In this document: positions 2 through 33,655 of the stretch, piece after piece
How positions within the stretch are numbered: the stretch's first letter is position 1
Layout of the letters: every line of letters begins with the position of its first letter
Source: Candidatus Multivoradales bacterium
GTDB taxonomy: Bacteria; Acidobacteriota; Thermoanaerobaculia; Multivoradales; Multivoraceae
DNA length: 64,000 nt
Reading direction: 5' to 3'
Assembly: GCA_965223325.1 (NCBI GenBank)
Contig: CBDCWI010000002.1
Coordinates: forward strand, 1,408,001 to 1,472,000
Translations under genes and position numbers: made by a program
The notes under the pieces: generated by a model
Told to the model about the DNA's origin: nothing
Databases searched by the model: none
What the model saw: the letters and a program-made list of their open reading frames with translations, nothing else

Positions 2-985
2 CTCGGCTACCGCACGGCGTTTCTGCAAACCGCCAAGAGCACCTTCGAGAATCGCCCGGGGCTGGTGCGCAATCTCGGTTTCGAAAACGCCGCCTTTCGC
101 GAAACGGTCGCGCGCGAGGGCTTCGACGAAGTCGGCTATCTGGGAGTCGAGGACCGCGCCCTGATCGAACCCGCGCTCGCCTGGACGCGAGCGGCTGGCG
201 ACAACCCCTGGTTCTTGACCCTCTTGACCCTGACGCCGCACCACCCCTACGAGACTCCCGAGATGGCGGCCGAAGGCGTTGGTTTCGATCCCACCCTACC
301 CTCTTACCATCGCACCCTCGAGTATCAGGATCAGTTCCTCGCCGATCTGTTCGCGGACCTCGAAGCGGGTGGTGCTCTCCTGAACACCCTGGTTGTTCTG
401 ATCGGCGACCACGGAGAGGCCTTCGGTGAGCACGCGCGCCGCGAGCACGACGCCGTGCCCTGGCCGGAGGCGGCACACGTACCGCTCTACCTCTGGGGTT
501 CGCCGCTCGCCGGTCGTCCACAGCGCGTTTCAGGTCTACGCAGTGTGCACGACGTCATGCCTACGGTGCTCGACCTGTTCGACATCGAGTGGCAGGGGAC
601 GCTCCGCGGTCAGACGGTCTTCGGGCCCGCCCACGAGCGGGTTTTTACCTGGTGTTGGTACAGCCGCTTCTGCGGCGCGATGCGCACCGGACCCCTGTCG
701 GTCGTCTACCACTTTGATCGCCTGCCCACCGAGCTCTACGATCGCAAGAGTGACCCGCTAGAGCTCACCAACGTCGCGCCTGGCGTCGACGCCGCATCGA
801 TTCGAGCTCTCGAGAGTCGCCTCCTGGCACACTGGTACTCGGTCAACGGCTTCTGGCAACACCAGGCGCCACCGAGCAGCCCGGACGAGCTGTGGTGGGC
901 CAGTAGCGCCCCCACGCCGGCAGACGGCGACCCCGCTCGCCGCTCCAACGACGCCTCTCTCCCGTCAGCGCCCGACCCCTTCTGA
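2..985 (+). CDS. Sulfatase / LTA-synthase-like alkaline-phosphatase superfamily protein (5' truncated)
   Basis: Frame is open from the window edge (LGYRTAFLQTAKSTFENRPGL...). Motifs TPHHPY, VVLIGDHGEAFGEH, HVPLYLW and ELYDRKSDPLELTN are typical of the family. Confidence 0.8.
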   Translation, partial: LGYRTAFLQTAKSTFENRPGLVRNLGFENAAFRETVAREGFDEVGYLGVEDRALIEPALAWTRAAGDNPWFLTLLTLTPHHPYETPEMAAEGVGFDPTLPSYHRTLEYQDQFLADLFADLEAGGALLNTLVVLIGDHGEAFGEHARREHDAVPWPEAAHVPLYLWGSPLAGRPQRVSGLRSVHDVMPTVLDLFDIEWQGTLRGQTVFGPAHERVFTWCWYSRFCGAMRTGPLSVVYHFDRLPTELYDRKSDPLELTNVAPGVDAASIRALESRLLAHWYSVNGFWQHQAPPSSPDELWWASSAPTPADGDPARRSNDASLPSAPDPF

Positions 986-2509
986 CCAGCGCGCCACGTC
1001 GCCGCTCTCTAGACCATCGGTGAAGATCAGAGCCGACGGGCTCACGGTCCACACGAAGCCGGCTTCGGTGCTGCCGGCGCTCTCGGTTACGGTCACTGCG
1101 ACGGTGTGAACACCAACCGCGCCGTTGGTCGGTCGACCGCTGATCACGCCATTCGCTGGGTCGATCGAAAGCCCGGCAGGTAGGCCAGTCGCGCTGTAGG
1201 AGAGAGGCTCGCCCTCGGGATCGGTGGCAACCACCTGGACCAGAACGTAGTCGCCGGCGGCGTCGCCCTGTGCCCCGGGCGAAACAATCGAAGCCGGCAG
1301 GTTGCCGGCCGCCTCGGCAGTCCAGTCGCGAGGACGAAGATCAAACGAGTTCCAGTGCGAGTACATCCAGACGTCGTCTTCATCTCGCGGAACATGATGA
1401 AAGGAAAGACCGACCCACACCACCGGGTCCTGCCCGACCAGACTCTCGCCGTTTCTGAAGTCCGCGAGGTCGGAACCGCAGATGGTGCCCCGCGCCGGGG
1501 TGACGAGGTTGTGCGACGCGAAGCGCTCACAGGCGCGCCACCGGGTGAACCAGAGATCGTGCTCGGTGAAGGGCTCGTAGGAAGGGCCAACGCTTCGGTG
1601 CCCGAAGTGCGTCGGCACGATCTCGTAGGACGGCGAGTGACCATCGGCGTTCGTGGTGCCGAGGTCGGTAACTCGCCAGGTGCGGAGAGCATCGGGTTCG
1701 ATCGAGCGCGCGATCTCGGTATCGAAGCGCTCTACTGAAATCGTCCGGGTGCGGTTGTTGGCATCGGGTGTCGCGTCGATCTCTTCGATCACATCGTCCG
1801 ACCCGTCATCGCCGAGGTCGAAATCGAGGCGCCAGAAAAAATTGTGAACGTGGGAGATCGCAATGCGTACGAAGTCGTCGTCGATCGACCAACCGTGGAT
1901 CTCGTCGGCAGGTTCGTCCGTGACCCGCTGCAGGCGCCCGGTGGCACCCATGCCCACTTCGATCGAACCGTCGTCGCGAAACGTCCAACGAGGAATGTAG
2001 TTGTAGGCACCGATGCCGCTGATCGAGAAGATCACCAATTGCTCACGCGCCGCCCCACCACCGTCGAAGAGCATGCGCGGCTCGCGCGCTTCTTGGTAGT
2101 GACAAACGACGTCCTTGTCGGTTGACAGCGAGTCGGTGAACGGAATCAACGTACCCGGGCAGTTGTCTTGATCGATCGACACCAGCCGTTTGTCGCCGAT
2201 TCCGAAGTCTGAAAGGTCGTGAAAGCGGGCGCCGTTGTCGTCGTAGGGGACATGGATCTGCGCCAGCCCGGCCTGGGTGAACACCCGCCGGCGCTCACCG
2301 GGCGCACTCGAAAAGTACACCTCCTCGAGGAGGACACCTTCGCGGGGATCGTGCGACACGCAGAGGTCCCAGCCCGTTCCGTTGTCGAAGGTGTAGTCGA
2401 GGCGCCAGTTCCCGGTGCACGGTTGCCCACTCGCCCCCGTTCCGACCAGAGACAACAGAACGGCCAGCAGAGGAGCCCGAAGGGAACGCCCGGACTTCGT
2501 AGCGGCCAC
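965..2509 (-). CDS. Exported copper amine oxidase, catalytic domain only, plus He_PIG/Ig domain and IFxDGLE tail
   Basis: Signal peptide; REGVLL; HVPYDD..FHDLSDFG (catalytic Asp); SGIGAYNYI (TPQ-precursor Tyr); Cu ligands HVH and HHVPRDED; Ig repeat ATDPEGEPLSYSATGLPAGLSID. Confidence 0.85.
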   Translation of the reverse strand: MAATKSGRSLRAPLLAVLLSLVGTGASGQPCTGNWRLDYTFDNGTGWDLCVSHDPREGVLLEEVYFSSAPGERRRVFTQAGLAQIHVPYDDNGARFHDLSDFGIGDKRLVSIDQDNCPGTLIPFTDSLSTDKDVVCHYQEAREPRMLFDGGGAAREQLVIFSISGIGAYNYIPRWTFRDDGSIEVGMGATGRLQRVTDEPADEIHGWSIDDDFVRIAISHVHNFFWRLDFDLGDDGSDDVIEEIDATPDANNRTRTISVERFDTEIARSIEPDALRTWRVTDLGTTNADGHSPSYEIVPTHFGHRSVGPSYEPFTEHDLWFTRWRACERFASHNLVTPARGTICGSDLADFRNGESLVGQDPVVWVGLSFHHVPRDEDDVWMYSHWNSFDLRPRDWTAEAAGNLPASIVSPGAQGDAAGDYVLVQVVATDPEGEPLSYSATGLPAGLSIDPANGVISGRPTNGAVGVHTVAVTVTESAGSTEAGFVWTVSPSALIFTDGLESGDVARWSEGVGR

Positions 2510-2511
2510 CC

Positions 2512-3750
2512 TCAGGGCTCTCCCTGTCTGCGGGTCGGGTCGAATGGGTTCTCGTACGTCCAGTCGCGTGGCAGAAGGGTGTAGCCGTACCAGTCGATCG
2601 GCTCACGATAGGCGCTCTCGTCTCGAGGCAGATGATGCCAACTCAACTTGTACCAGAGCACCGGATCGCCGTTCTCGAGATCGCCCGCGTCGATGTAGTC
2701 CGGCAACGACGCCCCGCAGCCACCGACAGTAGAATTGCCGAACGCCAGGCGCTCGCAACTGGTCTCGACGGTGGCCCAGAACGCCGCCTCGGTCCAGGGC
2801 TCGGCAGCCAGCCCGACGAAACGATGGCCTACCGCCAGCGGCTCGAGATGGTAGGAGCGAGCATGGCCCTCGCTGTTGTCCTGGCCGCCGTCGAGGAGCC
2901 GCCATGAGCGCTTCCGCTCGAGGTCGACGGTGGCAAATGCCTCGCTCGTCCAGGCATCCAGCTGCCGTGTGTAGAGCTCACGGTCGAGATTGGGCTCGAG
3001 CTCCAGCTCTTCGACGGTGTCGTCTGCGCCCGAGGTTCCGAGGTCGAGATCGATGCGCCACCAGGACGAAACCGTTGAAGCAACCCCAATGGTTCCGACG
3101 GCATCGATAGGCCAGCCGGCCGTGCTGTCGGATCCGGTTTCGGTGAGCAGGCCACCGCTACCGAGAGCCGGCTCGATCACGCCGTCGTCGTGCAGACGAA
3201 AGCGCACCACCCAGGTTCGACCGGCAAGTTGCGAGGCAGACCAGAGCTCGAGCCACTCGCCCTGACGCTCGGAGCCGTAGTACTGGAGCATCGGGCCGCG
3301 CCACTGCACGCGGTGGCAGGCGTTCGCTTGTGCTCCACCCGGAGCGTTCTGTGCCATGAGCGAACCGCCTGCGCAGTCCTCGGCTCGTAGGGTCAAGGCG
3401 CCACTGGCCAGGCCAGCGGCCGACAAGAGCCCCTCGCGCGAACGATCGTCGTGGAACACCACTTCGATCTGCGCCAGTCCCAAGCGATCGACGACGCGAT
3501 GCTCTGAGCCCCCCGGAAGGGTCAAGCGGGCGTCAACCAACTGCAGGCCCTCTTGATCCGCCAACTCGAGGCAACCGCGCCAGCGCGAACCTGCCTCGAA
3601 GGTCACGTCGAACTGCTGTGCTGGTGCACAGTTGAGCTCCTGGGCGGCGACCGCCTGCCCCGGCAGCAGAGGGCCCAACGACAACACGCCGACCAGGGCG
3701 CAGAATGGCCAGCTAGCAAAAGAACGACGTTCCAGCGACACAGCTCTCAC
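2512..3750 (-). CDS. Exported copper amine oxidase catalytic-domain paralogue, predicted inactive
   Basis: Colinear with 965..2509 (EGLQL, LAQIEV, WRIDLDLG..GADD, DPVLW, HHLPRDE, LLPRDWT), but the TPQ Tyr, catalytic Asp and HxH are missing. Confidence 0.8.
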   Translation of the reverse strand: MRAVSLERRSFASWPFCALVGVLSLGPLLPGQAVAAQELNCAPAQQFDVTFEAGSRWRGCLELADQEGLQLVDARLTLPGGSEHRVVDRLGLAQIEVVFHDDRSREGLLSAAGLASGALTLRAEDCAGGSLMAQNAPGGAQANACHRVQWRGPMLQYYGSERQGEWLELWSASQLAGRTWVVRFRLHDDGVIEPALGSGGLLTETGSDSTAGWPIDAVGTIGVASTVSSWWRIDLDLGTSGADDTVEELELEPNLDRELYTRQLDAWTSEAFATVDLERKRSWRLLDGGQDNSEGHARSYHLEPLAVGHRFVGLAAEPWTEAAFWATVETSCERLAFGNSTVGGCGASLPDYIDAGDLENGDPVLWYKLSWHHLPRDESAYREPIDWYGYTLLPRDWTYENPFDPTRRQGEP

Positions 3751-4616
3751 GGTCGCGCACCGGCTGGGTGCACGTGGTCGGCGTTCGCCGGGGAAGCAGC
3801 GCGAACTCGCCGCTCGAGCTCGAGGACCTCGCCAGTCGAGAGATTGACCACCGGCAAGACGCCCAGCGCCAGGCGTTCGGCGACCCCGGCGGTCGCCTCG
3901 CGGGCGTAGATCACCAGTTGCGCGCAGCGCTCGAGACCACAGCTCTTGGCTCCGCTGCTGCGCGTGGGCATCGCATCGGCGCGGAAGATGAACGCCTTGA
4001 CATTGAGCAGCGAGGCGTTCTGGAGAGCCTCGCCGGTGCCGAGCCGGTAGCGCTCACGGATGACGCGGCGGGTTGGACCGTCGGCGAGCGCCAGGTCGAG
4101 AGCCCGACGCGACTCCCTCTCGGTGAGCGGCAGCTGTGCACCACGAGTCTCGAAGTGATCGTAGAGCGCTGGGTCTCGACCCTCGGTCAGGCTGACCGTC
4201 AGCCTGTGGGTGATGTCGCGTGGGTACTCATAGACCCACACCACGGCACGACGCGGGCGCGCGCTGCGGTTCCTGGCCTTTCTCCCTGCCGGCCAACGCT
4301 CGGTTTCAACCAGCAGCAACTCGTAGCCCGGCAGGGCAGCCAGGAACTCCTCGAGGTCTGCGGGCGGGTTGGCCCGTACGGCCGTGGGAAGAAGCTCTTC
4401 GAGAGCCGACCGACTCGCTGCGCGGCGCTCCTCCGGGCTCAACGGGTCGAGCGCCCCCTTGGCACCGACCGATCGAGCACTCGTTGATCGGGCGTTCTCC
4501 TCTCGACCTTCGGGAGTGAGTGCCTGGGTCTCGCCTCGGGCGGCCAGGAGCGCGCCTCCGATCGCAAGAGCCAGCGCAAAGCGCCACCAGGGGCACAGGA
4601 TTCGAGGTCCCATCAT
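3747..4616 (-). CDS. Exported protein resembling the amine oxidase N2/N3 domains
   Basis: Signal peptide. LDPLSPEE, RRAVVWVY and QLPLTERE resemble CAO N2/N3 hallmarks. Stop overlaps the next start (GTGA). Start set at ATG 4616. Confidence 0.6.
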   Translation of the reverse strand: MMGPRILCPWWRFALALAIGGALLAARGETQALTPEGREENARSTSARSVGAKGALDPLSPEERRAASRSALEELLPTAVRANPPADLEEFLAALPGYELLLVETERWPAGRKARNRSARPRRAVVWVYEYPRDITHRLTVSLTEGRDPALYDHFETRGAQLPLTERESRRALDLALADGPTRRVIRERYRLGTGEALQNASLLNVKAFIFRADAMPTRSSGAKSCGLERCAQLVIYAREATAGVAERLALGVLPVVNLSTGEVLELERRVRAASPANADHVHPAGARP

Positions 4617-4732
4617 CTCTCTATTGTATTCGCCAATGGCTTTCTGTGCCGGAACGAAAGGCACCCCGCAGCCCCCTCGAAAGGGGTCCACGGGGCGCAT
4701 TCGAGGCCTTCAACGGAAGGGGCCGAAGAGCC

Positions 4733-6868
4733 CTAGACCGGCAGGCGCTGCATCCGGCGCCAGGCGAGCCCCCCTAGCACCATCACCAGGAGGATGAGTC
4801 CCCACACATCGAGAGTGGGAATCGGGTAGACACCGATCGGCCCGTCACCCTCGACCACTTCGGCGGTGTCATCGTCAGTGACGTCGGGAAGGCCCGGCAG
4901 GTCATCACCGTCCTGGTTCGACGGGTTGCCGACGGTGGTGGCGTCGTTGATGATGTTGCCCTGGATCGTCGACTCCCAGTAGTAGACGATCGACTCGCCG
5001 GGCGCGAGGGGTTCGCCGCCCGAGAGCAGCACCATGTCGGTCTGGTTCACGCCGTAGGTGTTGTCGACCAGAGTCACATCGTCGAGGTAGGTGGCTCCGG
5101 TATTGGTGATGACGAAGCAGAAGGTGACCGCATCACCGAGCTCGCCCTCGGCCAGTTCCGAACCCTCGCAGCTGGCACCATCGTCATAGCCGAGGTAGAC
5201 CGTCTTCTCGAGGTTGATGTCGGGCGTCGGAGTGACTGGATCGTCGCTCTCGGCCACCTCGGCGGTATCCGTGTCGGTGGGGTTGGGCAAACCGGGGATG
5301 TCGGACCCATCGGGGTTCGACGGGTCGCCCTCGGTGTTGGCAGTGTTGAGGATGTTGCCCTGAATCGTCGACGGCCAGGAGAGCAAGCGCGATTCACCCG
5401 GCGCGAGAATGCCCGGGACGTTGAACGTCTGACCGTAGGTTTCGTCTTCGACGACCACGTCACGCAGGTGGGTGGTGCCGGTGTTGGTGACGACGAAGCA
5501 GAAGGTGACCGGATCGCCGAGCTCGCCTTCGACGAACTCGACCGAACCGGCACAACCGGCATTGCCGTTCGTGCCGAGGTAGACCGTCTTCTCGAGCGAG
5601 ATGGCAGCGCTCACCACACGGACCGAGGCCGGGTCGGTGGCCTCCGGGTCATCGAGGCCCGGAAGATCGTTGCCGTCGCCACCCGTGGGGTTGCCCGTCG
5701 TCGAGGCGGTGTTGTCGAAGTCGACCGTTGCACCACCGGCAGGCGTGTACGAATAGGTCGCCGAAGCCCCGGGTGCCAGTGGCAGGCTTCCCGAAACCGG
5801 CGTCAGGTCGCTGATGTCGAGCCCCAGGGGATTGTCGTCGAGCGCCAGCGAGCTCAGGAAGACACCGCCAGTGTTGGTGACTTCGAAGCACCATGTGATC
5901 GGCGTGCCCGGTGCGACGGTGAGAATCTCGACGCCGGGGCATGCGTTGCCGTCGGTGCCGGCGACGATGGTCTTCTGCAGGTCGATCCCGGTAACGGCAC
6001 ATTCCAGCGTTTCGTAATCGAAACCCAGGGCGCTCAGATCGGCCAGCTGGACGCTCGTGCCGGTCGCTTTGTCGACGGAGAAGAAGCTGTTGTTGAGCCC
6101 CGCCGTGCCTTCGTCGCCAGTCGAGGCGAACATATTCCCGGAGCCGTCGATGGTCAGGCCTTCGACGTCCTTGACGCGCTCGGCGCCGGTCAGGAACGGA
6201 CCGATCGGCGTGGCGACACCGGTTACCCGATCGATCGTCACCAGCACGTCGTTGCGATCAACCCCTCCGCCAGCCTGGTTGGCCACACCGTAGAGGATGC
6301 CGGTCGTCGGATCGACGGCAATGTCATCGACGTCCATGACGCCTGAGACCGCACTCAGGTCGATGGGAATGCAGTCGCCGACGGGCTCGCCGCTGTTCGG
6401 GTTGACCGAGAAGAGGAAGTCCTCGCCGTTTTCATCGCGGCGATTGGCCAACAGCTGACCGGTAGTCGGGTCGAAGTCGAGGCCGTCGTTGTCGGAGGCC
6501 TGCTGACCGCCAGGGCAGGCACCCGCCGCACCAACCGACGTGAACTCGGCGGTGTTGGGGTCGACGCGGCCGAAGTTCTGGGCATCGTAGACCCACAGAG
6601 TCCCGGTTGCGAGGTCGAGCGCCGAAGACTCGATGTTGAAGGTCGCGGAGGTGGTACCGGCGATCACGATGCCACCCAGGTTGACCGGGCTCGAGCCGTC
6701 AGGCTCGACCTGTATCAGACCGTCGGGGCCGCCCTTGTTGTCGGCCACGAGGTAGCAGACGCCATCGGAAGTTTGAGCGCCAGCAACTCCAGCACCAAGA
6801 GTGAGAAGCAGTGCGGCCAGACCGGCCCAGCGGGCGGGCGGGATGGCAAGTATTCTGAGTCGGACCAT
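4733..6868 (-). CDS. Surface protein: beta-propeller plus three DUF11/DUF7507-like repeats and IPTL-CTERM
   Basis: Signal peptide; three repeats of IxLEKTVY...VTFCFVxTNTG; C-terminus PIPTLDVWGLILLVMVLGGLAWRRMQR. Confidence 0.8.
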   Translation of the reverse strand: MVRLRILAIPPARWAGLAALLLTLGAGVAGAQTSDGVCYLVADNKGGPDGLIQVEPDGSSPVNLGGIVIAGTTSATFNIESSALDLATGTLWVYDAQNFGRVDPNTAEFTSVGAAGACPGGQQASDNDGLDFDPTTGQLLANRRDENGEDFLFSVNPNSGEPVGDCIPIDLSAVSGVMDVDDIAVDPTTGILYGVANQAGGGVDRNDVLVTIDRVTGVATPIGPFLTGAERVKDVEGLTIDGSGNMFASTGDEGTAGLNNSFFSVDKATGTSVQLADLSALGFDYETLECAVTGIDLQKTIVAGTDGNACPGVEILTVAPGTPITWCFEVTNTGGVFLSSLALDDNPLGLDISDLTPVSGSLPLAPGASATYSYTPAGGATVDFDNTASTTGNPTGGDGNDLPGLDDPEATDPASVRVVSAAISLEKTVYLGTNGNAGCAGSVEFVEGELGDPVTFCFVVTNTGTTHLRDVVVEDETYGQTFNVPGILAPGESRLLSWPSTIQGNILNTANTEGDPSNPDGSDIPGLPNPTDTDTAEVAESDDPVTPTPDINLEKTVYLGYDDGASCEGSELAEGELGDAVTFCFVITNTGATYLDDVTLVDNTYGVNQTDMVLLSGGEPLAPGESIVYYWESTIQGNIINDATTVGNPSNQDGDDLPGLPDVTDDDTAEVVEGDGPIGVYPIPTLDVWGLILLVMVLGGLAWRRMQRLPV

Positions 6869-7855: not shown

Positions 7856-8839
7856 GTGCCGGCAAAGCCTGAGCAGACGGTCAGCGACGAGGCGGTCATC
7901 GCGCCGCGCTCGCCGTGGTTGGAGTTCAGCCAGGAGGAGTGGGGACGCCTGCGGGCCGACACCCCGCTGACCCTGACCGAGGCCGACCTCGACCAGCTGC
8001 GCGGTATCAACGAGAGTGTGTCGATGGATGAGGTGGCGACCGTCTACCTCCCGCTGTCTCGCCTGCTCAATCTCTACGTCGCCGCTACTCAGGGTCTGTT
8101 CGATGCCACCGCGACCTTCCTGGGCAAGAACGAGGGCAAGGTGCCCTACGTCATCGCGGTTGCCGGTTCGGTCGCGGTTGGCAAGAGCACAACCGCCCGC
8201 ATCCTGCAGGCCCTCTTGAGTCGCTGGCCCAACACACCGGCTGTTTCGCTGGTGACCACAGACGGCTTTCTATGGCCCAACGCCAAGCTCGAGGCCGACG
8301 GCCTGATGCACCGCAAAGGGTTCCCCGAGAGCTTCGACGTGCGCCGCCTCGTCGACTTCGTTGCCAGCGTCAAGAGCGGCAACCGAGGGGTCACCTACCC
8401 GCTCTACTCCCACCTGAGCTACGACATCATCCCCGACAGGTTCGGCGTCGTCGACCGCCCCGACATCCTCATCCTCGAAGGATTGAACGTCCTTCAGCCC
8501 CCACCCACGACCGGTCCGGGGCATCCACCCCGCCGCCATCTCTCCGATCTCTTCGACTTTTCGATCTACGTCCACGCTGAGACCGCGGTCGTCGAAGAGT
8601 GGTACATCCAGCGCTTCTTGACCTTCCGCGAGACCGCCTTCCAATCCCCCGACGCCTACTTCCACCGCTACGCCCAGCTCAATCAGGAAGAGGCCATCGC
8701 AACCGCCAAGGGCATCTGGAAGAGCATCAACGAGATCAACCTCGAACAGAACATCATCGGAACCCGCGAGCGCGCCACCTTGATCCTCGAAAAGGCTGCC
8801 GACCACACGGTCACCCAGGTCAAGCTACGCCGGCTATGA
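7856..8839 (+). CDS. coaA: Type I pantothenate kinase
   Basis: [16 protein letters not shown] Walker [30 protein letters not shown]. Confidence 0.95.
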
Positions 8840-10530
8840 CCGTCCGGTTCGCAGCTTGTATCACCATCGGCGCCTGCCTCTTTCTTTCTGTGCCTGGTGC
8901 CGGCGAGGAGTACCACGTCGCCCGCCAGGCTGGACAGGCTTCCGATGCAAATGACGGCCTGGCGCCGGTCTACCTGGGCGGCAACCACGGACCATGGGAG
9001 AGCCTCCACCACGCCAGCCAGGTCGCGACAGCCGGCGACACGGTCTGGATTCACGCCGGCGACTACCGCGGTGAAGTCACCGGCTGGGGTGGTGACGGCG
9101 TCATTCACGTCGACAACTCCGGGTCCCCGGGCGCTCCGATCCGCTTTCGCGCCGCCCCCGGCCCGCCGCCGCTCGTCCAACGCATGCTCATCCACGACCG
9201 AGAGTGGATCGAGATCGAGGGCCTGGCCTTCGAGAGCACCGAGTACGACCTCCCGGCCACCTGGCTCGACATGCCAATGATTACCGTAGACGACCCCACG
9301 GTGGTCATCGATCCCCGCGAAGACTGGTCAACCCGCGCCGCCAGGGTGCGCCAGAAGTACGCCACCTACACCGCCATGCAGGACTTCTTTCTGACCCAGT
9401 ACACCGTCGGAGTCGACGTGAAGAACTCACACCACGTCACCCTCCAGGGCAACTCGTTTCGCCTCTACACCTTTGGCGTCCAGATCCGCGGCGTCTCGAG
9501 CAACCTTCTGATTCAAGACAACAACTTCGATCACAACCACGACGGCATCTTCAGTTGGCTGCCCGAGCCCTCAATCAGCGACTCGATCATCCGCCGGAAC
9601 GTCATCCGCCACAGCTTCAACTCAGGTATCCAGATTCGCCAGCAGGCGACCTCGGTGGTCATTGCCTCGAACGACATTCGCTGGAGCGGCACCTCCCACA
9701 TCTCGCTTCTCGCCGACTCCGTCGACTGTTCGATCCGCGGCAACCGAGCCGTTTTCGGGGGGTACTACTCGGAGACCATGGAGTTCCCTGGAAGCTCGGC
9801 GATCAACGTCCACACCTCCGGCCCTGGAAACATCGTCGAGGGCAACCTCGCCGCCTACCAGAACGACCCCACCCTCGTCGACGGCAACGGCTACATCGCC
9901 GACTTGATGCGCCCGGACGGCACAGTGCTGTTTGTCAACAATGTCGCCTACCGCAACGTCGGCTCCGGCATCCGCACCGTCGAAACCCCAGGCTGCGTGA
10001 TCGTCCACAACACGCTGGTGGAAAACGGCTACGGCGCCGAGACCGCCTACGGTGGCGCCGGGGTCTACCTGGCGCGTTCACACGACACCCAAACGACGAT
10101 CGCCAACAACATCTTCAAGGGTCACACCTCTGCCTCGATCAAGAGTTGGTACACCGCCGACCAGCAGGCCGAGATCAACTTCAACCTCTTCGACGAGTCG
10201 CCCGGCATTCCGTTGCTCTGGGACGGAGGCGAGGGCGACAGGGCCTACTTCGACCTCCAATCCCTGCACGCCTCGACCGCTTGGGAAACGGAGGGAAGAG
10301 TAGCGAGCGCCCAGCTTGCAGACCATGCCGCCCTGGACTTCCATCTCACCTCCGCCAGCGCCGCGATAGACGGCGGACGCGCGGCACCCGAAGCCACCTC
10401 GGACTACAGCGGAATCCCGCGCCCGCGCGGCGATGCCCCTGACATGGGTGCCTTCGAGTACTGCCCAGACGGCTGCCAGCTGATCTTCCAGGACGGCTTC
10501 GAAGGCGGCGACATCGACGCCTGGCGCTAG
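8836..10530 (+). CDS. Exported right-handed parallel beta-helix protein with choice-of-anchor-Q-like end and IFQDGFE tail
   Basis: ATGA overlap with the coaA stop; signal peptide; [12 protein letters not shown]; Asn-ladder repeats; [13 protein letters not shown]...PDMGAFE. Confidence 0.75.
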
Positions 10531-21906: not shown

Positions 21907-24900
21907 CTACTCGCCGACGACCCTGCTCCAGGCCGAGGTGCTCGAGGACTCGAAGTCGTCACCGAAGAGGCTCGTGTCCTCCATCGGAAGACCGCCAACC
22001 CGGAGGGCGGGATCGCCCAGCAGGTTGTAGATCTCGAGCATGTGCGGGAAGTCGATGTCGGAGCCTTCGTAGCCCGCCATCGCATCGCGCATCGCCTCAC
22101 CCAGCGTCTCGCGTTCGCGAAGCGCGGTGACGAAGGCCTTGTTGAGCTCGTGGGCGCCATCGTTGATCGACAGACCCGATGGTGCCCAGACTGCGACCGC
22201 ACCACCGTCTTCGTCGGCAACCAACGCTTCACCCAGGGAGGTGTAGCCCGGCAGCTCGAAGCGTCCGACGCTGCAGGTCATGCTCGAGACGATCGGCAGG
22301 CGAGCCTGCGGTCCGAGTGTCGCGACGTCGGCGGTGGTCAACAGCCCCTCGGCGGCGAAGCGATCGAGACCGCCATGGCCGATGAAGTTCACCATCCACA
22401 CGCCGTTCTCGATGGCCGTCTTGATCGTCGCCCTGATCGTGGCCTCCGCACCCGGCGTGAAGTACGCCTTGTCGAGCTTGTAGCCATCCAGGAGGGCTGC
22501 AACTTCTTCCGCATCGCCGTCGAAATCGCCAGCCTCGTCGTCATTGTCGGCAACCAGGAGGACGCGATCGACATTGGGTGCGCGCGTACTCTCGAAGCCA
22601 GCCATCTTGGAGATGAAGTCCATGAGCTCGACTTCCGAGACCGCCGGGATGCGGCCAACGATGACCTCTGGCACGCCGTCGTCACCGACGACATCGCCGA
22701 GGCCAGCGTCCGAGGCGAACAGACCCTGCGGAGTCGCCACCATCTCGGGCGGCGCCAGGTTGGTGTTGGCCTCCTGGACTCCCTTGAAGTCGAGGGTGCC
22801 CTTGCCAACGATGACCGCGTACACCGGCTTGGTCGACCAGCTGTTCCAGGCCTCGGCCAGGTACGCACCAACCGCCGAGCCCTTGCGCTGACCGTCGCCG
22901 TACTCATCCCAGACGTCGAGCAGGTCGACGACACTGGTGCTGAGTCCATCGAGCGCCCGGTAGTTGGCGAGCTCCTGTGCTCCGCTTGCCAGTTCAGGCG
23001 GTGCGAAGACCAGGTACTCGGCTTCTACCATCGTCGGCCTACGCGAAGCCGTCGGGGTGAGGTTTGTAACGGCTTCGGAACCGTAGAGGAAGTAGCTCGC
23101 ACCAGCGGCGGCGTTCCAGGAGTAGGTGGTCGAACCCGCCTGCTCGTCGACCGCGCCGCCACTCAAGCGGACCGCCATCCTCGGGTCACTGACGTCGAGG
23201 GCCTGGACGGCCGCTGAGCTGAAGCCGCTCACCTCATGGTTGCCGCCACTCTCGGCGACCAGACTGAGCTGGTTGGACTCAGCTGCTGGGTTGCGCAGGT
23301 AGTCGACGGTGAACTTGTCGAGGTAGACGACACTCTGGGCGACACCCGGGTGCAGAACTCCGACCAGCTCGAGCGTGTTGCTCGCCTGGAGGAGACTGCC
23401 CTCGAACGTCAGCTGATGCGTGCGCGGACCGTCACCGTCCCAGTCGACCTGTCCGATCGACACGTCGTTGAGTAGAACCTCGAGACCATGGTCGGGGTTG
23501 TCGGCCGCCTTGGTCGCGGAGTAGACCTCGAGCGAGACCGTCGCCATGCCGGAACCGGCCGCGCCGTCGAGCTCGAAGCCAACTGTCTGCGTACCCGCAG
23601 TCGGGTTGCCGGCTACGATCGGCTTCCAGTACCAGAAATCCACGGTGTCGTCGCGCAGCGCTGCCGTAGCGTAGAAGACGTCGTCTTCGAAGACCGCACT
23701 GGCACCTACCGGGTTGCTCGAGGCACCTCCAGCCGGTACCGCACTGCTCGTCGGCGCTTTGGATCCTGCTGCCAGTTCGACGAAGTAGACGTCGTAGTTG
23801 GCGAAGTGTGAACTCGGTGCCGGAGCGTAGAAGCCCACTGCTGAGGCGACTCCGAAGCTGACATCCAGCGGCCACCAGGCGACGTCCTCACCGTTCGAAA
23901 CGATGCGCAGGTCGCCTGTCGCGATGCCCGCCTGTACGGATTCCGACGTAGCGGCGGTCACCGCGGCGATGTCAGCAACGGAGACGCGGTAGACGCCTTC
24001 CGCTGTGACCTCGACCCGTGCCCGGTCGCCGACCGCACCGGCTCCGGCCGCCAGACCGGCACGCTGGCGGAGATTCCGGTCGAGACCGTCGACCCGCGCC
24101 TCGTGGACCGCGCTCGAGCGCACGCTGCGCTCGACCCGATCGACCGGCTCGGCTGCTACGTCCTCGGCGGTGGCCATGTAGGGACCATGCCACTGCTCGA
24201 CGCCGCTCATCTCGATCTCGAGGACCCAGTACTCGTACTCGACCCCCGCCTCGGCGCCGGCATCAGGCAAGCGATAGGTGCTGCCCTGTCCTGCACCGAC
24301 GACGGCCGGGATCATCCTGTCGTTGGCCTTCTCGAAGGCGTCGCCGTTCGAGCGGTAGAGCCAGTAGCCCACCGTCCCGACTTCGCTCGCCGTCTGAAAC
24401 TCGACCTGCACACCCCGCGGTCCGCGCTTCGTCTCGAACTCGCTGACCAGGGCATCCGTCGAGGGACGGGAGTAGCCGAAGTCGTGGTTGGGTGAATTGG
24501 CACCGGAGATGCTCACCGGCTCGACGCTGGCCGTGGCCAACTGCGTCGTCTGGATGGCACCGTCGAGGAATGAGCCGGAGGTATCGACCACCACGATCCA
24601 GTCGGTGCCATTGGGCAGACCGGTGAACTGGTAGGAACCCAGGTTCGGCGTGGTTGCCTTCGAGGTCTGCGTACCGAACATCGGATCGGTGGGATCGAGA
24701 ACCCCATCGCCGTCCAGGTCGCGGTAGAGCTCGACGGTGACGTTGCCGACACCAGATTCGGCTGGGGGCTCGCGGTTGCCGTCAGCGTCGCCGTCGAACC
24801 ACACCGTGCCGCTCAAGCTGTACGACGTCACGGAAGCGGTGAAGCCGAAGTCCGCGGTGAGGACCGCCGGAGTACGCGACGAGGTGATGGTCACGGGGTA

Positions 24901-27900
24901 GGGACTCGCTTGGGAGTTGTTGTCCTGGCCCGTCGCGCCCGACGTCATACCGAACTGGTCGGTGACGTCCTCGGTGTCGTGCACGATCACGAAGTAGGTC
25001 CCGAATGGAACGTTCTTGAACAGGTAGCCGCCGTCGCGATCCGTCTTCTGCTGCTGCTGCAGACTGTCGATGCCCGCCTGGTAGGTCCCATTGGCGTTCT
25101 CGTCCTTCCAGAGACCGAGCCAGACGCGCTCGAGGCCCTGCTCGCCCACATCGTAGACGCCATCGCCATCGACGTCGTGCCAGACGAAGTTGCCGACCGT
25201 ACCGAGACCCGGCGATGAGTAGCCGAAGTCCGCATCGGTGTACTCAGCGCCGGCCGCCAAGGCGATGAGGGCAGTCGGGTTAGAGGCGGTCGTCAGGTTG
25301 AGACCCGAGAGGATGCCAGAAAGGTCGGTGACTTCGACGCGGTAGTCGCCGGCAACCAAGCCTGTGAAGCCATAGATGCCGCCCCCACCAGTCGTCGTCG
25401 TGGCCACCAGATCGCCGTTCGAGTCGGTGAGGTTGACCGTCACGTTCTTGATTCCGGGCTCGCCAGCATCCTGCACACCGTCGCCATCGACGTCGTGCCA
25501 GACGCGATCACCGATCCCACCCGTTGCACCACCGGTGAAGCCGTAGTCGGCGAGCAGCACGTCGGCCGAAAGGTCGACGTAGAAGCCTTCGGCGGCCGAG
25601 GGCTGGTTGGTCGGCGTGGTTCCGATGCCGGCCGGAAGATCACTCGTATCAACCGTCGCGGTGTAGGTACCGGTCTGGGTAATGCCAGTCACCAGATAGA
25701 AGCCGTTTGCCTTGGTGGTGGCCGTCTGGCTGTAGCTACCCGGGCCGGTCACTGTCACGTCGACGCCCTTGATTCCGGCCTCACCCTTGTCCTGGAGACC
25801 GTTGGCGTTGTCGTCGTGCCAGATGAAGTCACCGAGTGCCACGCCGGTGGCCGGCGCATAGCCGAAGTCGGCGTTCATCAGGTTCTCACCCGACGGCAGG
25901 TTGACCAGGGCCTGCGCCGGGGTTCCGGTCGTAGCGCTGAAGCCACTCGGCAGGCTGCTTTCCACTGGATCGACCCAGTAGGAGCCGGCGAGCAGCGACC
26001 CAAAGGCGTAGAAGCCGTTCGAGTCGGTCGTCATCGTGCTGAGCAGGGTGTCGTCGCCACCCGGCTCGAAGCTGCCATCGCCATCGTCGACGTAGAGACG
26101 TACAGTTACGTCGGCGATGCCTTCTTCGGAGCCCTGCTCGGTACCGTCGCGGTTGGCGTCGAACCAGACCGTGTCGCCGATCGAGCCAACGACCGGGTTG
26201 TCACCGAAGCCGAGATCGAGGGAGTGCATGTTGACCCCGGCGCCACCGGTGTTGACCACCGCACCCACGAAGGTCGTCGCCGCACGCGTGCCGCAGCTGA
26301 CGCTCGAGGCCTCGGAGTCGTGCAGGTCGGAGCCCTGCCCCGCCACGGTCGCCTGGTAGCCCGCCAGGGCGTTGCCACTGGTGAAGTTACTGTCCTTGAC
26401 CCGAATGTAGTAGGTCGAGTTATAGGCGATCGATCCGCTCACCTGGCCGACGGACGCATCACCCATCGAATGCGGAGCGCGAGGATCGGTCGAACCGATG
26501 AAGTAGAACTCACCGGCGGCGTTGGTCGTCGCCGAGGCAACCACCGCGCAGCTACCGTCGAGCAGCTCGAGGTCGACCCCGCTGAGCGGTGCCTCCCCCG
26601 CATCCTGGATGCCGTCCTCATCAATGTCAGCCCAGACGCGGTTACCGATCTCGATCGATGGTGCGTCGCAGAGGATCTCGACATCACCGAGACCGTTGGT
26701 CTTGCCGTAGACGTCGCCGTGACCGGAGATCACGTCGTACTGGCGGGTCTTGGCACCGTCGGCGGTGAACCACGAGAAGCCGTTGAAGAACGCGTAGTGA
26801 CCATCCTTGGTACTGGCAATGATCTCGGGGAATCCCGGGCGTGAGGCCAGGCCACCGAGGGCCGACTCGCCGCGAAACGCAGCACTGTCGTCGGCAAAGT
26901 AATACTCACCGCCGCCGATGCCCTGGGTGTTGTTGGCACCGAGAGTCGTCCGGCCACCGCAGCTGCCATTGTTCTCGATGGTCCAGGTCGCACCGACCTT
27001 GCAGGCACGCAAGATGTCGCCTGAGGCCGTGACGTCTTCGTGCTTGAAGTCACCCGAGCGTGAACGAATGCCGATCACCATGTCGCCCTGGTCGAATTCG
27101 ATGTCGGCGACCATCGGTTCTGGCGACCTGCTCATGAAGCCCCAGGGAACGAACGCATTGCTGTTGAAGTCGCGATGCAGGTAGGTCAGCGGGACGTTCA
27201 GCACCTGGGTGAAGGTGTCGGTCGTTGGGTTGAAGGTGTAGACGTAGGCCTTGAGGTTGGCTGCAGTCGCTGTGCTCTCGGCACTGCAGACCACGCCGAC
27301 GTAGACGTTGTCGTCGGTGGCGTCGGAGTGGTTGAAGCCGAGGCCCCATGGGCGAATGTCACCGTCGTTGACGCAGTCACCCTGGTCGAGCGGAATGGCG
27401 TGACGGAGAATCGCTGACGCTGCCGGTGCGGTACCGCCGGCGCCCAGCGGGAGCTCGACGAGCTCGCGATAGCTGTCAGCCACATTGATCGCCCACAGGG
27501 TCTGCTCATCTTTGCTGAGCTCGATGTCACCGAGCCCGACCTTGCCGATCTTGGGATCGAGCAGCGGCGGCGGGTCAGTGATCGTGCCGGAGTAGTCGGA
27601 GATCGAGTGCTCGCTCAACATGGCCGCTGCCAGGTCGATGAACAGCGTCACCGTCTCCGGGTCGGTGCTGTAGTCGATTGAGTAGATCGCACCGAGACCG
27701 TCCGGCGGCAACGAGGTCGTCGCGCTGGCGGTGGCACCGGCAAACAGCTGCTGGCTCGAACGATGGTAGGCAAGGCCGTAGAGCGAGCCCACCTGAGCGG
27801 CCGAGGCCGGGTAGTTGTGCGACGCACCCTGGAACCATGGCGGGTCCTGATCGCTGGCGTCCCAGGGGAAGTCGAGAACCGCAGCCAGGCTCTGGTCGCC

Positions 27901-30900
27901 CGTCGACTGGACGAAGCAGGTGCTGGCCGCCCGGGCACCGGGCTGGCAGTAGTCCTGTGGCCGGTTGATCGAGATGCTCACCCCGCAGGCTGGGCTGGTC
28001 ACGAACTGGACTGTACTGCCGGTACCGCCAGCAACCGGGCCCGGGTTCGAGCCATTCGCCAGCGAGGTGAACTCGACCCGCACCGGGGTGCCGTTGGGAA
28101 CCGACAGTTCGTAGGTACCGTTGGCGGTCGTGGTGGTTGTCGCAACCAGGTTGTTCTGGTTGTTGTAGGCCTTGACCGTCGTACCCGAGAAGAAGCCCTC
28201 GAGCGGATCGAGAAGACCGTTGCCGTTGTAGTCCTGGAACACCAGGCCCTTGATCTTGTTGGCGCTGGTTGTACACGTTGTGTAGACGCCGGCGTCGTAC
28301 TCGGAATCCGACGCGAGGTCTTTGGCCGAGTTCGATGTCAGAGTGAACGTATCGGTCTTGCCAGTGGCATCGGCATCACTGTCCAGGGTGTCGTCGCCAC
28401 CAGCATCCTTGGGACTGAAGGTGAAGCCCATGCCGCTCGGCAGGATGTACTTGAGGTACCAGTCGCCCGGCAGCAGATCACCTTCGAGGTAGGTGCCCAG
28501 AGCCGTGAGACTGGACGCCTTGGTGCTCTCCCTGAAGGTCCAGAAGTTGCCGATCTCCCAGCTGCCATCGAAACGCGTCACGGTCGTGTAGTAGGGCGAG
28601 GAGCCCGCTGGCCGCCACACTTCGACGGTGACACCGGGAATGCCTGGCTCGTTCGCATCCTGGATGCCGTCCTGATCGAGGTCGCGGAAAACGCGATCAC
28701 CGAGGACCGGGCTGACGATCCAACCCATGTCGACGGCGCTGACTGTCGACTCGCCGTCGTGGGTGATGGTCGGACCGAAGACTGAACCGTAGCTGTGTCC
28801 GAACGTCGCGCTACCGATTCCGAAGTCGCTGTCGGCCAGGTCGTCGCCAACGTCCTTCAACGTGTGCCAGCGCATTCCGTTCTGACGAGAATTGACATCC
28901 CAATCGACATCTTCGAAAGTGGCGCTGTTCTTGAAGCTGATCGACGGCGTGTAGTCGCCGGCCGCACTGATGGGAATCTCGTAGCAGCCGGTTGTGAGGT
29001 TGATGGTGCCGCCGGAAGTGCTGAAGGGGAAGGCGGTGACATTGGCCTGGATCTGGGCACCCTTGTCGACAGCGAAGTCTTCCCCAGACTGACGAATACC
29101 GTCGTAGTTCTGGTCTTCCCAGAAGCAACCGCGAATCATCGGCGGTGTGTCGAGACCGAAGTCCGCGTTGGTGAACGCCTGGCCGTCGCCGAGCGTTACC
29201 GCTACGGGATCCGTGGTCGTCTTGGTGGTGCCGGTGGGCAGCAGACCGTCGACGACGTCGACCGTGTAGTTGCCCTGGAAGAGCCCGCTGAAGGTGTAGA
29301 CGCCCGAAGCGTTGCTCATCGTACGCGGGCAATCGGTACCCGGTGTGCATACCCCGTTCTGAAGTTCGACAACGATGCCGCCAAGCACGATGTCACCAGC
29401 ATTGTAGGTGCCACTTGCGTCCACGTCTTCGAAGATCAGGTCACCGATCGAACCCGGGCCGGTGGCCGGCAGGTCGTAACCGAAGTCGGCGTCGTTGTAG
29501 TCCTCATCGACTCCGAGGTTGACGATCAGCGGCTCGTTGCCGGTGGTCAGCGTCGAGCCGGCTGGCAACGTCGTCTCGTCGACGTCCACGCAGTAGGTAC
29601 CCGTGAGGTATCCCTTGAAGTTGTAGAAGCCCGTCGAATCGGTCTGCTGGGTCTCGAGGATCGCACCCGCGCAGGTGGTATCGCGCAGACGGACCGTCAC
29701 CAGAGCAACGCCCGGCTCCGAATCGTCGCTACCGTTGACGTTCAGATCGTCATAGATCCGGTCACCGATGTGGCCTTGCGGACCCTGGTAGCCGAAGTGG
29801 AAGAAGTTGTAGTTGGTCGACGAAGAAACACCGATGCCACCCAGGGGCTCGGCGGTGCCGGTGTAGGTGTAATTCGGCGGTAGTGTCGAATCGTCGACAT
29901 CGATCCAGTAGGTATCGGCGATCAGCCCGTCGAGGGTGTACGTACCGTCGGCCGCCGTGACCGCGGTGCGCTTGATCGGCCCGGTGGCACTCCCGGAGCG
30001 CGCGTAGACCGTGACGCCCTCGAGGCGCCCAGTTTCACCAAAGGCACTGTTGTCACCGTTCTCGTCGTCCCAGAGGTAGCCACCGAGGGAACCGCCGCTG
30101 ATCTGGTAGCCGATGTCGGCGAGATCGTAGTCCTGATGTCCCACGATGGTCACCAGTCGAGGTTCGGTCCCGCCGGTGTGGGTCGCACCACCCGGGAGGG
30201 AGGTCTCGTCAACGTCGACGCAGTAGGTCCCTGCGGCGAGGCCGGTGAAGTCGTAGGCGCCGGCGCCATTGGTGACCTTGGTCTGGACCGTGGCCCCGGC
30301 ACAGCTGCCGCCCTTGAGCCAGACGGTGACACCTGAGACGCCACCCTCACTGTTGTCCAATCCGTTGCCGTCGGCGTCTTCCCAGATCTTGTCGCCGATG
30401 GTGGCGTCGTTCACCTGGTAGCCGACGTCGGCCAGGTTGTAGTCCTGCCCGGCGGAAAGTGAAAGCAACCGCGGTTCGGTCCCACCGGTGTGGGTCGCAC
30501 CAGCTGGCAGCGACGACTCGAGCACGTCGACACAGTAGGTGCCGGCGGCGAGAGTGGTGAAGTCGTAGGCACCGGTCCCGTCGGTGACATCGGTCTTGAT
30601 GACCGAGCCCGAGCAGCCGCCGGAACGCAGCTGGACCGTGACGCCAGAAAGACCGCCTTCGCCGGCGTCCTGGATACCGTCGCCATCGTCGTCGGCCCAG
30701 ATCCGGTCGCCGATCGTGGCGTTGTCGATTCGGTAGCCGACGTCGGCTGTGTTGTAGTCCTGGCGAGCAGTCAGGGTGAGCAGCTTCGGCTCGGTTCCAC
30801 CTGTGTGGGTGGCGCCAGTGGGCAGCGACGACTCGAGGACGTCGACGCAGTAGGTGCCGGCCTGCAGCCCGGTGAAGTCGTAGCTTCCGGTGGCGCCAGT

Positions 30901-33387: not shown

Positions 33388-33655
33388 TTCATATCTCCGA
33401 GACCCTCCCGACGACTCGCGTCGGAGAACGGGCACTTCAGAACTTCCACGACCGGCAGTTGGTCGCTGGAATGAGAATCAGGGCGAGGCAAGAAAGAAGC
33501 TGACGAAACAAGAACGTGATCCTGGTTGAGAGAAAAGCGATGACGGCCCTGGGCGGATAGACAGTAGTTATGCGCATGATCCGATTTATCTGAGCCCGTC
33601 AAAACCGCACTCCACCTCGTCTTACACGAGTCTCGGGAGTTTTCGGCCAATTCAT

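Follow-up and report, generated by a model that had tools for sequence, protein, structure and literature searches.

Copper amine oxidases (CAOs) that have been characterized are, to our knowledge, single-chain homodimers, and three adjacent genes in a 64,000-nt window of contig CBDCWI010000002.1 (assembly GCA_965223325.1, Candidatus Multivoradales bacterium) raise the question of whether the chain of such an enzyme can be divided over several polypeptides. The genes, hereafter g1, g2, and g3, all lie on the minus strand, and all coordinates below are positions within this window. An earlier reading of the DNA alone (the original prediction) had taken them for a separate N2/N3 subunit, a dead catalytic paralog, and an active catalytic subunit of one exported enzyme. 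Our analysis leads to a similar answer: g1, g2, and g3 probably encode one exported, multisubunit topaquinone CAO, in which g2 and g3 form a dimer with one active site and the complex is tethered to the cell surface.

The identity of the active subunit was evaluated by profile searches and alignments. g3 matched Cu_amine_oxid (PF01179) over residues 46 to 399 (E value, 8.8e-41; 140.6 bits against a cut-off of 27), and a He_PIG domain was also detected (E, 1.1e-15). Residues 43 to 396 align to residues 324 to 713 of the Escherichia coli CAO chain, which is the catalytic domain alone, and this domain begins approximately 14 residues past the signal peptide. There is no room in g3 for the N domains; N2 and N3 are not found in the same chain as the catalytic domain and appear to reside in g1 instead, as described below. 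The residues that the original prediction had listed for g3, namely, the catalytic Asp, the Tyr precursor of topaquinone, and all the copper-binding His residues, were every one found by alignment (Tyr89, Asp98, Tyr169, Tyr171, His220, His222, and His372). The canonical consensus around the cofactor Tyr is N-Y-D/E; the corresponding motif of g3, A-Y-N-Y, departs from it.

g2 is recognizably related to g3 and has lost the active site. Cu_amine_oxid was matched by residues 181 to 402 (E, 5.4e-13; 49 bits against the cut-off of 27), the NCBIfam primary-amine oxidase score was 41.6 against a cut-off of 651, and g2 and g3 share 32% identity over 385 residues (E, 2e-62). At the positions of g3 Tyr89, Asp98, Tyr169, Tyr171, His220, and His222, g2 carries Phe, Leu, Arg, Trp, Ser, and Val, respectively, and the sole residue retained is the last His. 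The g2-g3 alignment therefore agrees with the Leu for Asp and the Arg for the topaquinone Tyr that had been read from the sequence. The claimed replacement of HxH by STVS holds insofar as this segment contains no His at all, but its exact register depends on the alignment.

In the case of g1, no Pfam model was matched at an E value of ≤1, including PF02727, PF02728, and PF21994, and NCBIfam likewise gave no match. Hence, of the hidden Markov model comparison that the original prediction had proposed for all three proteins, the Cu_amine_oxid matches of g3 and g2 were obtained, but no N2/N3 model was matched by g1. Word-indexed protein searches with g1 and g2 returned two proteins each, self included, and the clusters nearest to g1 in a protein atlas are labeled hypothetical proteins. 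A HMMER scan of 1.84 billion representatives with g1 identified 190 relatives at an E value of ≤1e-3, mainly of 220 to 280 aa, and 66 of these formed the alignment designated A1. Among the 66 family members, four matched AGAO-like_N2 and three matched Cu_amine_oxidN2 in Pfam, although weakly (best E, 0.0035). The motifs LDPLSPEE, RRAVV, and QLPLT..E, previously singled out as N2/N3-like, are present in g1 and are conserved motifs of the family.

The fold of g1 was predicted from A1 with AlphaFold2 (mean predicted local distance difference test score [pLDDT], 84; predicted template modeling score, 0.74), and the model contains two tandem units, each of a helix and four strands. The top Foldseek matches of this model in the PDB were all CAOs (best E, 3.1e-7). 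By VIA-align, residues 46 to 273 of the model were superimposed onto residues 87 to 284 of the E. coli CAO (Z, 10.3; root mean square deviation, 3.9; 190 residues), and the model also covered residues 9 to 195 of AGAO, the Arthrobacter globiformis enzyme (Z, 9.2), and 21 to 212 of the Hansenula enzyme (Z, 9.9); in all three enzymes, these ranges are the N2+N3 region. At the sequence level, the A1 profile matched the N terminus of a canonical 678-aa CAO encoded in the same genome (E, 2.5e-5), as well as canonical CAOs of relatives. With hhalign, A1 aligned to 13 canonical CAO N termini, which had been chosen by their match to the A1 profile, with 97.8% probability (E, 1.1e-12; 186 columns), and against PDB sequences, the best match of the profile had an E value of 1.1, in register on a CAO N2 region. 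Overall, the predicted fold and the profile alignments support homology of g1 to the N2+N3 domains of CAOs, in agreement with the original prediction, which had made this assignment depend on the fold. The canonical CAO of this genome is a single-chain enzyme located at G000:C2:2576915-2578948 (locus L001), with 422.8 bits to PF01179.

Next, conservation of the cassette was investigated in a scan of one genome per species, which yielded at least 595 pattern matches, at least 579 of them confirmed as related to the g3 catalytic domain. From these at least 579 relatives, the 80 best, grouped as 78 loci, were used for architecture and residue counts. Architectures were assigned by phmmer of g1, g2, and g3 against all open reading frames (ORFs) of the loci combined with residue typing, from which the own-genome duplicates of the window (L002 and L003) and ORFs with ≤100 bits to g3, including the canonical CAO of L001, were left out. 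The order N-dead-active was found in 47 of the 78 loci, 46 of them from Pseudomonadota (two with a second active copy) and one from Myxococcota. An N-active arrangement was present in 19 loci (13 Chloroflexota, 4 Actinomycetota, and 2 Nevskiaceae), and 11 hold the active copy alone, several of these coming from genomes that also hold the full cassette; one locus, cut by the contig end, has a dead-active pair without an N gene. Active-type sequences kept Tyr89, Asp98, Tyr169, Tyr171, His220, and His222 in 81/81 cases and His372 in 79/81, the other two being truncated. In the 49 dead-type sequences, the Asp and His220 were never retained, His222 was retained once, the cofactor Tyr in 6 (Arg replaces it in 25), and His372 in 26.

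A quick maximum-likelihood tree (LG+G4, 131 rows, canonical CAO as the outgroup) placed all 49 dead copies in a single clade (Shimodaira-Hasegawa-like approximate likelihood ratio test [SH-aLRT] value, 99) and the 59 gammaproteobacterial-type active copies in another (SH-aLRT, 97). Parallel subclades of Thiothrix, Leucothrix, Cocleimonas, and Methylococcales relatives are seen in the two, and the branching among the dead clade, the gammaproteobacterial active clade, and the Chloroflexota copies is not resolved in this tree. Ratios of nonsynonymous to synonymous substitution rates (dN/dS) were estimated by the Nei-Gojobori method in four groups of close relatives, after dropping pairs that failed or had a dS of ≥3 (usable pairs, 10/10, 3/6, 5-6/6, and 1/6). 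The resulting rough values, in group order, were 0.098, 0.063, 0.058, and 0.104 for the dead copies, 0.098, 0.090, 0.073, and 0.076 for the active copies, and 0.135, 0.068, 0.057, and 0.336 for g1. All of these lie well under 1, and the dead copy is no pseudogene in decay; it is a pseudoenzyme paralog under purifying selection that has been retained long-term. Both the survey for the triplet and the dN/dS estimate for the dead copy had been suggested with the original prediction, and they bear it out, the dead copies giving about 0.06 to 0.10, like their active partners. More generally, those refuting conditions named with the original prediction that could be checked by computation all turned out in its favor.

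The arrangement in the window also links the three genes. Their ORFs together fill positions 965 to 4700, the g1 stop and the g2 start share the sequence GTGA, and the TGA of g2 is followed by GG and then by the GTG start of g3, so that the overlap and the 2-nt gap between co-oriented genes read as originally described. We counted this overlap and abutment as translational coupling, which supports joint assembly of the products. In a sequence scan of positions 800 to 5000, no promoter-like sites were found, and the eight terminator-like sites all lie within genes.

A three-chain complex was then modeled from the g3 catalytic domain (alignment A2, 45 of 80 relatives), g2 (alignment A3, 41 of 48), and g1 residues 46 to 275 (A1), with g2 as the scored partner. 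g2 scored 0.92 in three of three runs, in comparison to 0.00, 0.00, and 0.02 in the controls; the runs agreed in at least 93% of contacts, and the partner pLDDT was at least 88. The calibration of this mark is only roughly valid for a three-chain job with its own alignments; 116 of 157 solved complexes attained it, as did 2 of 215 mismatched pairs. In the model, g2 is paired with g3, as expected from the heterodimer put forward in the original prediction. In a study of AGAO, an engineered dimer with one cofactor-less monomer is described as working normally, suggesting that a one-site dimer is feasible, and CAOs are reported to be functional only as dimers (PMC4497604).

Secretion and surface attachment were evaluated separately. 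All three proteins start with signal-peptide-like segments, although the signal peptide claimed for each gene was judged here by eye and not called by a predictor. Six Cys residues are invariant or nearly so in the catalytic domains and two in g1, and export is supported because these Cys pairs are conserved. The C-terminal tail is confined to the active subunit. A scan of 14 proteins, comprising 13 active subunits plus a g1-like ORF from L063, revealed He_PIG, Big_9, cadherin-like, PKD, or TSP3 arrays on eight active subunits. The C termini of active subunits resemble GlyGly-CTERM, MYXO-CTERM, or IPLP-plus-helix-plus-basic ends, names that were given by reading and not by a tool. These arrays and sorting-signal ends on orthologous active subunits fit the surface display that had been proposed from the immunoglobulin-like (Ig) domain and tail of g3. 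Chloroflexota active subunits (L015, L024, L026, L050, L053, L057, and L058) recurrently end in [LF]FLP-x-x-x-[RN] at the very C terminus, a sequence that may be a lineage-specific sorting signal.

The tag that ends g3 has the form F-x-D-G-[FL]-E-x-G...W, and no NCBIfam match to it was found. Its genome-wide form, [hydrophobic]-x-[DE]-[GDS]-[FL]-E-x-[GSN]...W, closes 56 ORFs of this genome (at least 150 aa, some of >4000 aa), with 6 occurrences elsewhere in 5.04 million ORF residues. Judged from this distribution, the tail motif is probably an undescribed C-terminal sorting or anchoring tag of this organism's own. The same C-terminal motif occurs in the window at 8599 to 10530 (plus strand) and at 21907 to 33477 (minus strand).

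Taken together, the domain identities, the residue loss in g2, the conservation, the synteny, and the purifying selection are the observed basis on which we propose how the enzyme would work. g1 would supply the N2+N3 domains as a separate protein. The catalytic domain of g3 would bind copper, convert Tyr169 to the quinone cofactor, and oxidize primary amines to aldehyde, ammonia, and hydrogen peroxide (H2O2). g2, presumably an old duplicate of the catalytic domain whose active site was lost, would be kept as the second half of an obligatory catalytic-domain dimer, leaving a single active site in the g2-g3 pair. Only g3 carries an Ig domain and a C-terminal tag, and through these the complex would be held on the outside of the cell. 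In this scheme, we infer the assembly, stoichiometry, cofactor formation, activity, and location of the complex; physiologically, it could serve to scavenge ammonium from amines, to release H2O2, or to cross-link material at the surface.

Several results weigh against the heteromeric enzyme proposed here. With respect to the modeled dimer, the high score of g2 may reflect the likeness of the g2-g3 pair to solved CAO homodimers, and the score cannot tell a g2-g3 heterodimer from two homodimers. The predicted interface is not distinguished by conservation, with a mean of 2.69 bits in the dead family versus 2.66 bits elsewhere (2004 of 5000 permutations were as high), nor is it better conserved in the active family, where 4977 of 5000 permutations reached at least the same value. 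The contact between g1 and g2 is slight, since only three g1 residues touch g2 in the model and the g2 score fell to 0.02 after g3 was replaced. This contrasts with two natural fusions, P0040 (640 aa) and P0153 (638 aa), which are 87% identical to each other and in which an N2N3 module of the g1 type is fused with a catalytic domain of the dead type, tying g1 to the dead domain. As such, the fusions themselves count in favor of a joint assembly. In ten loci (L005, L009, L018, L025, L028, L041, L042, L048, L049, and L051), g1 and the dead gene share a reading frame and are separated by just one stop codon, suggesting how such a fusion arose.

Other reservations concern the active subunit and the evolutionary estimates. 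The NCBIfam primary-amine oxidase scores of g3 lie far below the cut-offs (121.7 against 651 and 65.4 against 1278 for NF008559 and NF011285). Asn precedes the cofactor Tyr in none of the 81 active-type sequences, 65 of which have Ala at this position, and Glu follows the Tyr in only one; from these sequences, the active-type family departs from the canonical CAO active-site shell. According to PMC9491219, replacement of the corresponding Asn in AGAO (N381A) lowers the rate 160-fold and leaves the cofactor flipped, and hence the activity of the split enzyme may be low or its chemistry altered. Long-branch warnings apply to the quick tree, both window genes included (end branches, 0.83 and 1.17), and dS values of 1 to 2 are near saturation, which makes the dN/dS ratios rough, though they remain far below 1.

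Among the alternatives, the one that survives best, which we nevertheless regard as unlikely, is that g3 forms a homodimer, presumably as in the two-gene systems, with g1 docked to it, and that g2 works separately as a homodimeric binder of amines or other ligands, as a helper in maturation or copper delivery, or as a regulator of g3. Such a role would agree with the 19 N-active and 11 active-alone loci, where the active type exists without a dead neighbor, with predicted interface positions that are not specially conserved, and with the recurrent Arg at the position of the cofactor Tyr (25 of 49 dead copies), which could serve ligand binding. Nevertheless, the dead clade has been co-inherited beside the active clade since a single duplication, the three genes overlap or abut, and the complex model favors the g2-g3 pair (0.92 versus 0.02). 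The report that CAOs function only as dimers, cited above, also speaks against this alternative.

The hosts of the cassette bear on a second alternative. Many carriers are filamentous (Thiothrix, Thiolinea, Leucothrix, Cocleimonas, Herpetosiphon, Caldilineaceae, Ca. Amarolineaceae, and Microthrixaceae) in a list ordered by similarity, which does not amount to an independent sample, and non-filamentous carriers were found as well (Woeseiaceae, Halioglobus, Methylococcales, and Cellvibrionales). The active subunit might be something other than a conventional small-amine oxidase, an enzyme in which the A-Y-N-Y motif holds the cofactor differently or yields a different Tyr-derived cofactor, and which acts at the surface on macromolecular amines, for example peptidyl-lysine, to cross-link proteins of a sheath or matrix, or acts mainly as a generator of H2O2. 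We consider this rather improbable, slightly more so than an independent g2. The missing Asn before the Tyr and the crippling effect of N381A in AGAO favor it, and so do the long adhesin-like tails with surface sorting signals, the many filamentous hosts (among them Thiothrix, Leucothrix, Cocleimonas, Herpetosiphon, Caldilineaceae, and Microthrixaceae), and the presence of the Pichia lysyl oxidase, itself a CAO, among the PDB matches of g3 (E, 1.1e-10). On the other hand, all the residues required for topaquinone chemistry are present, the ranking of the host list by similarity and the non-filamentous carriers reduce the force of the host argument, and no conserved substrate gene was found near the loci. 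A related and equally doubtful idea, a shade fainter still, is that the former active-site pocket of g2, with its Arg for the cofactor Tyr in 25/49 copies, became a ligand or target site that aims the surface quinoenzyme at macromolecular amines, making the complex a lysyl-oxidase analog that cross-links the sheath or matrix of filamentous bacteria.

The distribution of g1 was also examined within the class of the window's organism. In the tree, the window genes sit on long branches among sequences of uncultured gammaproteobacteria, which points to horizontal acquisition. Among 401 genomes of the class, a g1 match at an E value of ≤1e-12 was found in the window's own genome only, and a search of 24 genomes from the same family turned up no standalone g1. 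Weaker g1-like ORFs of 235 to 281 aa are present in three genomes of the same order, with a distant catalytic-domain gene next door in two of them. These two same-order pairs, L083 (genome G026) and L085 (genome G037), consist of a g1-like ORF beside a weakly matching catalytic-domain ORF, and split CAOs may be more diverse than the family sampled here. That the cassette is a horizontally acquired relic no longer used would accord with this distribution (1/401 class genomes, none standalone in 24 of the family) and with the long end branches, but it is very improbable, because the three frames are intact with all family-invariant residues and Cys pairs kept, and g3 bears the C-terminal tag found on 56 ORFs of this genome, which argues for use in this organism and host adaptation, not decay.

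The heteromeric CAO proposed here was also considered in its genomic context. Of the 65 loci whose sequence continues for 600 nt or more past the active gene, 22 encode a small exported YtkA-like protein with a GGMPxHGHGLP motif directly downstream of it. Proteins of the YtkA type are copper chaperones, and the YtkA-like neighbor, which we count in favor of the proposed enzyme, is likely a metal chaperone for the oxidase. The gene was seen among L004 to L059 (for example, L005:10368-10814), whereas a search of the window's own genome (98.2% complete) gave none. Spurious overlapping frames aside, it was the only recurrent neighbor besides the three genes themselves (23 loci). In the window, a sulfatase-family gene at 65 to 985 (plus strand), cut by the window start, is convergent with g3 and overlaps its last 21 bases. 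On the other side, a gene at 4733 to 6868 (minus strand) finishes 116 nt upstream of g1 and is not a conserved neighbor across the related loci; its exported product of 711 aa contains three DUF7507 repeats and terminates in an IPTL-CTERM sequence. The coordinates of the three genes and of the g3 features are given in Table 1.

Table 1. Positions of the split CAO genes and of g3 features in the window
Feature	Position	Strand	Basis or remark
g1, exported N2+N3-type protein, 289 aa (assignment supported by modeling)	3747..4616	-	ORF open to 4700; likely start ATG 4616, signal-peptide-like N terminus
g2, exported catalytically dead CAO catalytic-domain paralog, 412 aa	2512..3750	-	Cu_amine_oxid match, identity to g3, lost residues
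g3, exported active-type CAO subunit with Ig domain and C-terminal tag, 514 aa	965..2509	-	Stop codon 965-967
g3 catalytic (D4) domain, residues 29-405	1295..2425	-	Pfam match and E. coli CAO alignment
g3 Tyr169, putative topaquinone precursor, A-Y-N-Y motif	2003..2005	-	Alignment
g3 Asp98, putative catalytic base	2216..2218	-	Alignment
g3 His220-Val-His222, two Cu ligands	1844..1852	-	Alignment
g3 His372, third Cu ligand	1394..1396	-	Alignment
g3 He_PIG Ig-like domain, residues 410-490	1040..1282	-	Pfam
g3 C-terminal tag ALIFTDGLESGDVARWSEGVGR	968..1033	-	One instance of the genome-wide C-terminal motif

The cassette is widespread, with at least 579 relatives of the active subunit in species-level genomes, and it is carried by, among others, Thiothrix, Leucothrix, methanotroph relatives, Chloroflexota, and Microthrixaceae from wastewater and marine environments. 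There, an amine oxidase at the surface could be relevant to nitrogen scavenging, H2O2 release, or matrix chemistry. The cassette would be a clear case of the transition from a homomer to a heteromer after gene duplication. g1 and its relatives are at present unnamed hypothetical proteins. In addition, crosstalk between the two catalytic sites of CAOs has long been debated, as stated in PMC4497604, and a natural pair of active and dead subunits with separate N domains offers a test bed for the contributions of dimerization and of the N domains. No description of a natural split or heteromeric CAO was found in the literature searched, with subscription journals and supplements lying outside the search.

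Three habits of known CAOs are broken here: the N domains lie in trans, the predicted partner is a dead paralog, and the N-Y-D/E consensus is absent. As in TynA/ECAO of E. coli and AGAO, the catalytic fold, the cofactor Tyr, the Asp, and the three copper-binding His residues are found in g3, the predicted N2+N3 fold is found in g1, and the proteins are putatively exported. Unlike in those enzymes, N2+N3 lie on a separate polypeptide, the second catalytic domain of the modeled dimer is a dead paralog instead of an identical chain, and g3 has an A-Y-N-Y motif, a C-terminal Ig domain with a sorting tag, and scores far below the NCBIfam cut-offs. The engineered AGAO WT/Y382F heterodimer likewise combines one active and one cofactor-less subunit, and its active monomer is described as normal in PMC4497604. 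That heterodimer was built in the laboratory and carries one point mutation, whereas g2 is a natural, 32%-identical paralog without the whole active site, conserved across many genera. Vascular adhesion protein-1/AOC3 resembles the g3 system in being a CAO on the cell surface (PMC6306676), but it is a single-chain homodimer of eukaryotes that is anchored in the membrane at its N terminus, whereas here the tether would be provided by C-terminal bacterial sorting signals on one subunit. Finally, the Pichia pastoris lysyl oxidase (PDB 1rky/1w7c) is a CAO with a macromolecular amine substrate and provides a functional analogy for the cross-linking idea, although, unlike the split g1/g2/g3 system, it is a single-chain homodimer with its N domains in cis.

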